NCBI GenBank assembly: GCA_964016885.1
Contig: OZ024751.1
Location: 35,836,001 to 35,900,000 of the forward strand
Direction: 5' to 3'
Origin: Eledone cirrhosa
Lineage: Eukaryota
DNA: 64,000 nt
The first letter of the stretch is position 1. The number at the start of each line of letters is the position of its first letter. The notes under the pieces are model-generated. The model worked only from the letters and a program-made list of their open reading frames with translations. It did not search any database and was not told the DNA's origin. Shown here piece after piece: positions 3,555 through 50,675 of the stretch. Both the position numbers and the translations under genes were made by a program.

Positions 3555-3605
3555 TTCCTGATGATTTCTAAAGAATGAAACAGTTCTAGTCCTGTAGAAT
3601 CTCAT
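3549..3605 (+). ncRNA. Type I hammerhead ribozyme (family B element)
   Basis: Stem I ATGAGATTC/GAATCTCAT; CTGATGA 3558-3564; stem II TTC/GAA; GAAA 3577-3580; stem III ACAG/CTGT; GTA cleavage triplet 3594-3596. Confidence 0.9.
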
Positions 3606-23815: not shown

Positions 23816-23947
23816 GATAAATCTACCAAGAGTTTACGGTAGTGTCCAATCCGTATGAAGAACTCAATGTATTCCGGATATCATGGAAAGAAGAGATGTA
23901 ATGAAAAACCACTTTCGGTGAAAGATAAACGGTATACAGAGTACAAG

Positions 23948-24349
23948 ATAAAATATTAAACAAATAATGAATAAACAATTTCTTATATTAAACAAAAAAA
24001 GTTCATTATTTAACGATCGTTTCTAGGATATATATGTGTTAGAATTGGTATGCATATTTAACAGATCTATGTACAAAATTATACAAAATTATACAAATTA
24101 TCAAGATTAAATATACATACCAAACACATATATACACATATATATTATTTCTGAAGACGGCGTATATATGTGTTTGGTATGTATATTTAATCTTGATAAT
24201 TTGTATAATTTTGTATAATTTTGTACATAGATCTGTTAAATATGCATACCAATTCTAACACATATATATCCTAGAAACGATCGTTAAATAATGAACTTTT
24301 TTTGTTTAATATAAGAAATTGTTTATTCATTATTTGTTTAATATTTTAT
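23948..24349. repeat. 188-bp inverted repeat with 26-bp spacer
   Basis: 23948-24135 is the reverse complement of 24162-24349. No mismatch noticed by eye. Confidence 0.9.
24143..24293 (+). ncRNA. Type I hammerhead ribozyme with ~115-nt stem II
   Basis: TATTATTT-CTGAAGA(24151)-long hairpin (GTATATATGTGTT/AACACATATATAT; TGGTATGTATATTTAA/TTAAATATGCATACCA)-GAAAC(24274)-GATC-GTT^AAATAATG. Confidence 0.75.
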
Positions 24350-24350
24350 A

Positions 24351-24672
<322 letters not shown>

Positions 24673-31577: not shown

Positions 31578-31725
31578 GTGAAGGCGCATGGCTTAGTGGT
31601 TAGAGCATTGGACTTGCAATCGAAAGGTTGTGAGTTCAATTCTCGGACCGGGCGATGTGTTGTTTCCTTGAGCAAGACACTTTATTTCACTTTATTGCTC
31701 CAGTTTACTCAGCTGTAGAACTGAG
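31578..31725 (+). mobile_element. tRNA-derived CORE-SINE (octopus OR2-like)
   Basis: A box TGGCTTAGTGG, B box GAGTTCAATTC and CORE-like TCCTTGAGCAAGACACTTTATTTCAC...ACTCAGCTGTAGAA. Confidence 0.85.
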
Positions 31726-48897: not shown

Positions 48898-48937
<40 letters not shown>

Positions 48938-48941
<4 letters not shown>

Positions 48942-49641
48942 ATTAGAACCCTGTAACCATTAAGCTCTAAGTATAAAGTACAAATAAATACTGAGCCGAT
49001 TGTCAATATATAGTAAGAAACACAGTAAACCGTGTGTCTAAAATTACAAGGGTTGAAAAACCACATATGCTTGAAATATTTAACCAAGAAACAGACAGAA
49101 TGACAAAATGAAAATAAAAATATATTATCATAATAATACAAACCGCCTCAATAACCATTATATCTCTCGGACAGATTATCCCTAATCTGTTTCGCCCTGA
49201 GTGTGTTTGTAACAGATAATCCTGGGCTTCATCAGCGAGAGATTGCGATTAAATGCCACAAACACTATTTGCCAACGTTCACACAGAAAGATGAATTCAT
49301 CACCTCGTGCTTCGCCAGTCAAACGTGGTAAGCGCGTATTGAACAGAAATAACAGTCCAACACGCACAACTTAATAGCTCAACTTGTAAGGGAGCAGAAA
49401 TATATATATGAGAATTAGAACCCTGTAACCATTAAGCTCTAAGTATAAAGTACAAATAAATACTGAGCCGATTAACAATAGAGAGATATAATGGTTATTG
49501 AGGCGGTTTGTATTATTATGATAATATATTTTTATTTTCATTTTGTCATTCTGTCTGTTTCTTGGTTAAATATTTCAAGCATATGTGGTTTTTCAACCCT
49601 TGTAATTTTAGACACACGGTTTACTGTGTTTCTTACTATAT

Positions 49642-49645
<4 letters not shown>
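48938..49645. mobile_element. Penelope-like pseudo-LTR structure (direct plus inverted repeats) between (TA)n tracts
   Basis: 64-bp direct repeat at 48938-49001 and 49410-49473; 165-bp inverted repeat at 49004-49168 and 49481-49645; an HHR lies inside. Confidence 0.8.
49162..49243 (-). ncRNA. Type I hammerhead ribozyme, canonical
   Basis: Minus strand: ATCTCTCG-CTGATGA-A-GCCC..GGGC-GAAAC-AGATTA-GGGA-TAATCT-GTC^CGAGAGAT. Confidence 0.92.
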
Positions 49646-49731
<86 letters not shown>

Positions 49732-49990: not shown

Positions 49991-50436
49991 ATAGAATATA
50001 CCAGAAGAGGATAGAACGTGATAGGTGAGGAAAGAGAGTTGACAAACGAGGGAGCTCAGTAGTTGGAAGGAAGGACTAACATCGATATCGACAATCAGTT
50101 TTCTAGTTATTCCATCGACGAAACACAACCCGAAGTTATGTTAAAAGACAAGTTCTTTATGCTTAGTTGGGAACACATTGTCATACAGTCCATGTAAAAT
50201 AAAATATTAGATGGGACCACATTAGTTGACAATACTACACTATACAACTCTATACAGAATTCCATACAAAACAAAGCGAACAATTACGGAGGTTTTAATA
50301 ATATCAGAATCTAATTCTAGTCAAAAATCTCTCTCAAGCCAGAAGCCTCGTTAAGCAGGTGCTTATCCCAGTCCATCGCAGGGTTAAACCCCCAGCTATT
50401 ACTGGTACTAATTTTCAGCTGAGTATATATATATAA

Positions 50437-50542
50437 GTTTATCCCGGGTCCAGCCGGGGGTAACCACAGTAAGTAAAGTACTCAATACAAAGCAGAGTAT
50501 AAATATTTAATATAGAAAGGCTTCTACAGAACTAGAACTGTT
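50437..50542 (-). mobile_element. Family B element truncated within HHR stem III
   Basis: Reverse complement AACAGTTCTAGTTCTGTA^GAAGCC...GTATTGAGTAC...CCCGGGATAAAC-TA. Confidence 0.85.
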
Positions 50543-50675
50543 ACATTACATTTGCTGAAAATTTAAAGTAAGTGAGACTGTCACTACTCTAAAACAATAG
50601 CGTAAGGTCTTCAAAATGCTTTTAATTAAGCATACAGTGTATTGCAAAATACACTGTATATACATTCATATATAT

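Follow-up and report, generated by a model that had tools for sequence, protein, structure and literature searches.

Does an inverted repeat that begins at the cutting site of a ribozyme record the cleavage of the RNA from which it was copied? The question is raised by a short element at positions 48938-49645 of the window, the 64,000-nucleotide stretch of the Eledone cirrhosa genome that we analyzed. An earlier note on this sequence had observed that an inverted copy of part of the element starts within 1 nt of the predicted cut of a minus-strand hammerhead, and had proposed that a 3' cleavage product was the template for reverse transcription. Our reading differs on the template. We consider it rather probable that the copy is a non-LTR retrozyme that a Penelope-like element (PLE) placed in a TA microsatellite with its reverse transcriptase and GIY-YIG endonuclease, from a template that was continuous across the ribozyme site and was most likely a ligated circle. 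The match between the end of the inverted arm and the predicted cut is likely due to chance.

The 472-nt monomer was numbered from the predicted cut, with position +1 at 49169 of the window. The parts of the copy are as follows (coordinates, strand, description and, where needed, basis).

48900..48937, no strand: (TA)n target microsatellite at the 3' end of the element (sequence)
48938..49003, minus: monomer 167-232, the tail of about 66 nt, which the direct arm has and the inverted arm lacks (arm map; read after the available part of PMC11167929)
49004..49169, minus: monomer 1-166, the portion between the predicted cut and the tail boundary
49162..49243, minus: complete type I hammerhead motif with the predicted cut at 49170|49169, the DNA site intact (fold; core and stems kept in older relatives)
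49170..49399, minus: monomer 243-472, the portion upstream of the predicted cut
49200..49213, minus: loop II segment, complementary to 49266-49255 (fold, sequence)
49255..49266, minus: upstream strand predicted to pair with loop II (whole-monomer fold; conservation)
49400..49409, minus: internal (AT)5 tract of the monomer, the joining point of tailed copies with target TA
49410..49480, minus: direct pseudo-LTR, a second, 5'-truncated unit, monomer 162-232
49481..49645, plus: monomer 2-166, the inverted arm, without tail; its junction with the direct arm is blunt (0 nt overlap)
49646..49701, no strand: (TA)n target microsatellite, adjoining the inverted arm at its outer end (sequence)

Each inverted arm (49004-49168 and 49481-49645) has a length of 165 nt, the two are 100% complementary, and the inverted copy starts at +2, as close to the cut as had been described. 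The 64-bp direct repeat of the earlier note is also present, with 48938-49001 identical to 49410-49473, but it extends to 49480 and has a true length of 71 bp with two mismatches, both private to the window copy among the 158 loci mapped below. Both repeat copies were said to adjoin TA repeats. The first of these is the target microsatellite at 48900-48937; the (AT)5 at 49400-49409 is part of the monomer rather than flank, since other copies have it at their internal tandem junctions. The repeats of the window copy are far beyond chance, whereas the coincidence of inverted arm and cut is within chance. At the tail boundary, the two neighboring bases 49002-49003 are unlike every other mapped copy and unlike the second unit of the same copy; they are possibly a scar of the second start of reverse transcription.

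In monomer numbering, the window copy consists of the inverted arm from 166 to 2, a direct arm of 553 nt that runs from 162 through to 242 in the following round, and then (TA)n. The direct arm comprises 1.15 units, carries the tail and contains the ribozyme site uncut; the copy as a whole has one ribozyme only. The unit of about 470 bp without an ORF that had been suggested is confirmed as a monomer of 472 nt, AT-rich and low in GC, with no protein; the longest ATG ORF of the circular monomer has 55 codons.

Folded alone, the minus strand from 49243 to 49162 is predicted to form a three-stem type I hammerhead (-23.5 kcal/mol) with a stem I of 8 bp, CUGAUGA and one extra base, a stem II of 4 bp, GAAA, a stem III of 8 bp and GUC. 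The GUC occupies 49172-49170, which gives the predicted cut at 49170|49169, and the motif is complete, in agreement with the earlier prediction. In Rfam there is a weak HH9 match only (15.5 bits, E 1.1), and no match reaches the gathering score. In old relatives, 68-86% identical, the catalytic core and the stems are kept, with changes in stems I and II leading to G-U pairs, while the stem III loop and the extra base after CUGAUGA are variable; this retention of core and stems while loops vary suggests selection for cleavage. In young copies the frequency of rare variants was not lower in the ribozyme core (0.71%) than elsewhere (0.54%), a comparison that is uninformative because the same is expected under neutral decay of copies.

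In folds of the whole monomer, loop II is predicted to pair with 49266-49255, which disfavors the active ribozyme by about 5 kcal/mol. The 8-nt core of this pairing is kept in 7 of 10 old copies, with no covariation. The contact may be a blocking hairpin or a pseudoknot. Because the folding program does not include pseudoknots and, according to the available part of PMC3088659, contacts of this type frequently activate hammerheads, the pairing may be a pseudoknot and not a blocker. Another candidate, in which loop II would pair with sequence 3' of the cut, was dropped because a mismatch breaks it in older copies.

The element belongs to a dispersed family. A DNA search of the genome (3.0 Gb) yielded 1465 candidates, the best 40 of which gave 119 matched pieces; an 18-nt pattern placed directly downstream of the cut has at least 400 matches genome-wide, and one variant of the ribozyme core has 221 exact matches. 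Several subfamilies exist, including an older group, 68-86% identical, with 104 matches. The best copies of the window's own subfamily are 98-99% identical, which supports a young age for that subfamily, as had been supposed for the insertion.

For the breakpoint map we used 158 distinct loci: 98 from a first sample (100 merged loci less two triplicate copies) and 60 more in a second sample, 58 of them found via two tail patterns and two via the ribozyme-core pattern. Five remote fragments, the old group, 8 new tail-pattern loci and 41 further matches were left out, and 254 arms remain. The triplicate loci are L107, L108 and L109 (G000:C1, 217.4-217.6 Mb), which have identical breakpoints and flanks and represent a segmental triplication that was counted once; a fourth core match lies nearby.

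An antisense arm is present in 87 of the 158 loci. Its outer end is at monomer 163-170, just before the tail, for 75 of 91 antisense arms; none of the 91 carries the full tail and two end within it. Inner ends are scattered, with 67 different positions among the 76 tail-less inverted arms. Direct arms end at the tail end in 129 cases and at the tail boundary in 26, which fits two start sites of reverse transcription bounding the tail, as described in the available part of PMC11167929; the tail of about 66 nt is likely the stretch between these two starts. TA-rich sequence flanks 142 of the 154 3' ends in the family and, for inverted arms, 68 of 75 outer ends. The PLE-like layout of direct and inverted pseudo-LTR proposed for the window copy is supported and recurs in the family, together with the tail and the TA target. 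The recurrence of this layout, with fixed outer and differing inner ends, in these 87 loci and in an unrelated PLE family makes it very improbable that the inversion arose through an assembly error or through a fold-back of DNA without any role for retrotransposition. Among the contig pieces listed from four public runs, none crosses the inversion junction of the window copy, and they speak neither for nor against its two private bases; this result is uninformative given that short pieces were filtered and the individual was possibly another one.

The map also bears directly on the cut site. All 213 passes that reach +1 continue upstream through the predicted cut. We found one stop at +1 to +3, that of the window copy, where a uniform rate predicts 1.59, and, allowing for junction ambiguity, four stops at -4 to +3, where 3.70 are expected. 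For inverted arms alone the latter interval has 3 stops against 1.47 expected (P 0.18), counts that leave room for a small excess. A genome-wide pattern for a start exactly at +1 gave one match, in which the ribozyme continues upstream with a mutated core, and a pattern for a +2 start gave no copy besides the window copy; both detect only junctions at which the two upstream bases differ and the downstream 18-20 nt are exact, so that some are missed. Blunt joins are ordinary, as inversion junctions have no overlap in 30 of 86 cases and at least 2 nt in 37 of 86. Scattered inner ends, complete read-through and the +1 and +2 patterns together lead us to reject a hot spot at the cut, and with outer ends fixed and inner ends scattered, an inner end at +2 is at chance level.

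The proposal that a 3' cleavage product was the template is not supported at the level of the family: the inner ends are scattered, every pass reads through, and the site is intact in the window copy's own direct arm. The plot of breakpoints relative to the GTC site, which the earlier note had itself put forward as a check, shows scatter and no pile-up, the result that it had named as a refutation. In other words, the claim of a cleavage fossil at the insertion junction fails once other copies are mapped.

Two groupings of inner ends deserve a comment. In the first sample, 10 inverted arms, not counting the window copy, had their inner end at -5 to +25, against 3.4 expected; the interval had been picked post hoc, and most of these loci owed their discovery to a pattern at 14-31. 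The second sample of 60 loci had 2 against 2.7, and this cluster was rejected. In the second sample, inner ends cluster at monomer 105-128 (about 49042-49065), with 11 of 37 against 3.2 expected in an interval also picked post hoc, near a short hairpin. A true hot spot of stopping or joining may lie there instead of at the cut.

A narrower version of the cleavage hypothesis concerns the window copy alone: its second cDNA would have reached the 5'-OH terminus of a cleaved RNA, run off and been shortened by one base, an event rare in the family. The start at +2 and the blunt junction agree with this, as do two inverted arms that start at -3 and -4 (L028 and L080, with 2 nt of ambiguous overlap), and stops at +1 to +3 could make up as much as 2.6% of all passes and 9.4% of the inverted ones (upper 95% bound). 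We nevertheless judge such a run-off improbable. Chance alone gives 0.64 such inverted arms in the sample, and the one seen is the copy chosen on account of this feature; the +1 pattern led only to a mutated, continuing copy and the +2 pattern only to the window copy; overlap-free junctions are common; and the direct arm of the same copy was read through the ribozyme site.

What, then, was the template? On a linear monomer that extends from cut to cut, a cDNA primed at 242 would be 242 nt long and run off at +1. This is seen in none of the 213 passes, and the template was therefore continuous, either a circle or an uncut multimer; on this evidence, cleaved linear monomers seldom if ever serve as template for insertion. 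Circle and uncut multimer predict the same junction map. We counted 29 cut-to-cut units in the first 100 loci, with arrays of 5 and 6 complete units and arms of up to 7.2 units. One array (L120) has six identical complete units and in another (L035) two unit types alternate. Mismatch between units is 1.2% within a locus and 2.3% between loci. Variants private to a locus were shared within it in only 13 of 127 and 11 of 131 comparisons, and were common to both arms in 10 of 32 loci. At diagnostic positions (subfamily alleles), the arms of one locus were discordant in 23 of 701 comparisons, compared with 44% between loci, indicating a single source for the two arms of a locus. Of 213 distinct within-locus differences, 8 recur in at least three loci.

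The long arms, the identical units of L120, the alternation in L035, the conservation of the ribozyme in the old subfamily and the small number of recurring within-locus differences all favor a circle, although the L120 and L035 arrays could also be explained by later tandem duplication. Since units within a locus are usually not identical, a circular template needs later mutation or error by the reverse transcriptase. This difference of 1.2% is one of the points on the side of the main competing explanation, in which the same element and Penelope-type machinery used a linear, uncut multimeric transcript, with the ribozyme inactive during insertion and no circle needed. Its other support is the predicted disfavoring of the active ribozyme in whole-monomer folds and, in the available part of PMC11167929, unprocessed RNA as the main substrate with no reads ending at the cut. 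Nonetheless, we regard a linear multimer as unlikely. The core and stems kept in distant relatives suggest that cleavage is selected, partly cut multimers would leave run-offs at +1, a multimeric master with unequal units would give recurring differences where few are seen, and six identical units stand in a single array.

Returning to the continuous and probably circular template, we infer that the family was made by reverse transcription, and the following sequence of events would account for its structure. Tandem loci would be transcribed, the ribozyme would excise monomers and a host ligase would close them into circles. A GIY-YIG endonuclease would nick both strands of (TA)n; one target strand would prime cDNA where the tail ends, the other about 66 nt further upstream. 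The two cDNAs would stop at near-random places and then be joined, often via an overlap of 1-4 nt. In the window copy, the second cDNA would likely have stopped at +2 by chance.

The element has no ORF for a reverse transcriptase and GIY-YIG endonuclease, and the PLE ORF pieces near the copies inspected are separate neighbors. PLEs are abundant in the genome (150 scored GIY-YIG matches among 10596 candidates). One autonomous, Neptune-like family has the same signature of tail, tail-less inverted arm and TA target. Its sequence does not resemble that of the monomer, and the similarity of the two tails does not exceed that of shuffled sequences (447 of 1000); a search of 50 GIY-YIG loci, from more than 10,000 candidates, with a profile of the monomer had a best E of 0.28, and no pLTR homology was found there. 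Several candidate links to a partner were discarded: a 19-nt match in L164 and L137 is antisense and inside reverse transcriptase coding sequence, a same-strand pair 4.8 kb apart in L253 has no match with three PLE proteins, and the copy in L259 is a separate insertion downstream of a PLE. A further PLE family (L156, L157, L162, L168 and L152) carries a minimal hammerhead about 400 nt past the end of its ORF.

A more specific form of the mechanism is possible, and we put it forward tentatively: the junctions may record directly in the genome how a Neptune-like Penelope enzyme copied a ribozyme-made circle, with target-primed reverse transcription that proceeded as a rolling circle and began at two fixed sites inside the RNA, one for each target strand, and with the conserved loop II pairing acting as a switch against recutting. 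If true, this would provide the missing insertion mechanism of animal retrozymes and a minimal substrate of 472 nt for PLE biochemistry.

Other repeats in the window and genome have related structures. At 23947-24348 of the window there is a near-perfect hairpin (95%) of about 400 bp, which ends at a TA tract and whose surrounding 600 bp match L162 at 81%; another repeat family has probably inserted here in direct plus inverted form. Pieces of a second short hammerhead repeat family lie in TA tracts at 3558 (plus strand), 24406-24520 and 50424-50546. The copy at 3558 passes the type I motif scan, and relatives occur in L155, L158, L161 and L169. A third ORF-less hammerhead repeat, bounded by TA, has two units 459 bp apart downstream of a PLE (L154:6500-7420). 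Several retrozyme families seem to be present in the genome. Separately, a partial tRNA match (32 bits) at 31589-31646 of the window is probably the head of a tRNA-derived SINE.

Among known processes that create inversions, LINE-1 twin priming joins two target-primed cDNAs through a short overlap and produces a 5' inversion; the second site is variable and the arms have no sequence overlap. Our family is unlike it in both respects, as the two RNA priming sites appear fixed and internal and the arms overlap in sequence.

Endonuclease-bearing PLEs are close parallels. In the available part of PMC11167929, the protein of a Poseidon PLE (PAc) nicks and extends both strands of AT-rich DNA, reverse transcription starts at two internal RNA sites bounding the tail, and, for the Anolis PLE, insertion was unaffected by ribozyme mutants and mostly used unprocessed RNA as substrate. 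The part of PMC8557442 available to us describes partial tandems with a truncated copy in inverted orientation, a single-ended tail and a bias to (TA)n. The family agrees with these descriptions in every point. Poseidon PAc from the first source, and Neptune, Naiad and the non-autonomous Chlamys from the second, share with our family the partial tandem, the inverted 5'-truncated copy, the tail at one end and the AT-rich or (TA)n target. They differ in having a tail of 30-40 bp and a minimal hammerhead, compared with about 66 nt, a full-size hammerhead and no ORF here; Naiad and Chlamys lack canonical hammerheads according to the same part of PMC8557442. Pairs of hammerheads on opposite strands, 100-700 bp apart near PLEs, are reported in the available part of PMC4209133.

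By its sequence, the element qualifies as a non-LTR retrozyme. For these animal retrozymes, Cervera and de la Pena (2020, PMC7229834; available in part) demonstrated circles and proposed mobilization by PLEs. As in that account, our family is low in GC, protein-free and tandem, with one canonical type I hammerhead per unit and hundreds of dispersed copies from part-units to multimers. The monomer of 472 nt is a little larger than the 150-450 bp given there. Expression, cleavage and circles were shown in that study; the ribozyme was predicted to be free in most animal circles, whereas a competing pairing is predicted here. The words 'inverted' and 'microsatellite' are absent from the main text of PMC7229834. 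A bioRxiv preprint (10.64898/2026.07.22.740005) argues, in its available part, that retrozymes are non-autonomous PLEs, based on co-occurrence and pLTR homology, mainly in vertebrates. Its conclusion on the mobilizing machinery is the same as ours; we found no pLTR homology in the 50 GIY-YIG loci and provide an insertion signature instead. In the text of the preprint that was available, 'tail' does not occur and 'inverted' occurs in a reference title only.

A literature search, mostly of open main texts, found no reported map of retrozyme tail and inversion junctions. Where the earlier argument for PLEs relied on co-occurrence and pLTR homology, the family described here has the PLE tail and inversion signature at more than 100 junctions. 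This tie to Penelope enzymes at the level of junctions is a modest addition to a known class of elements, and the family provides a small, young and testable substrate for deciding between circle and uncut multimer.
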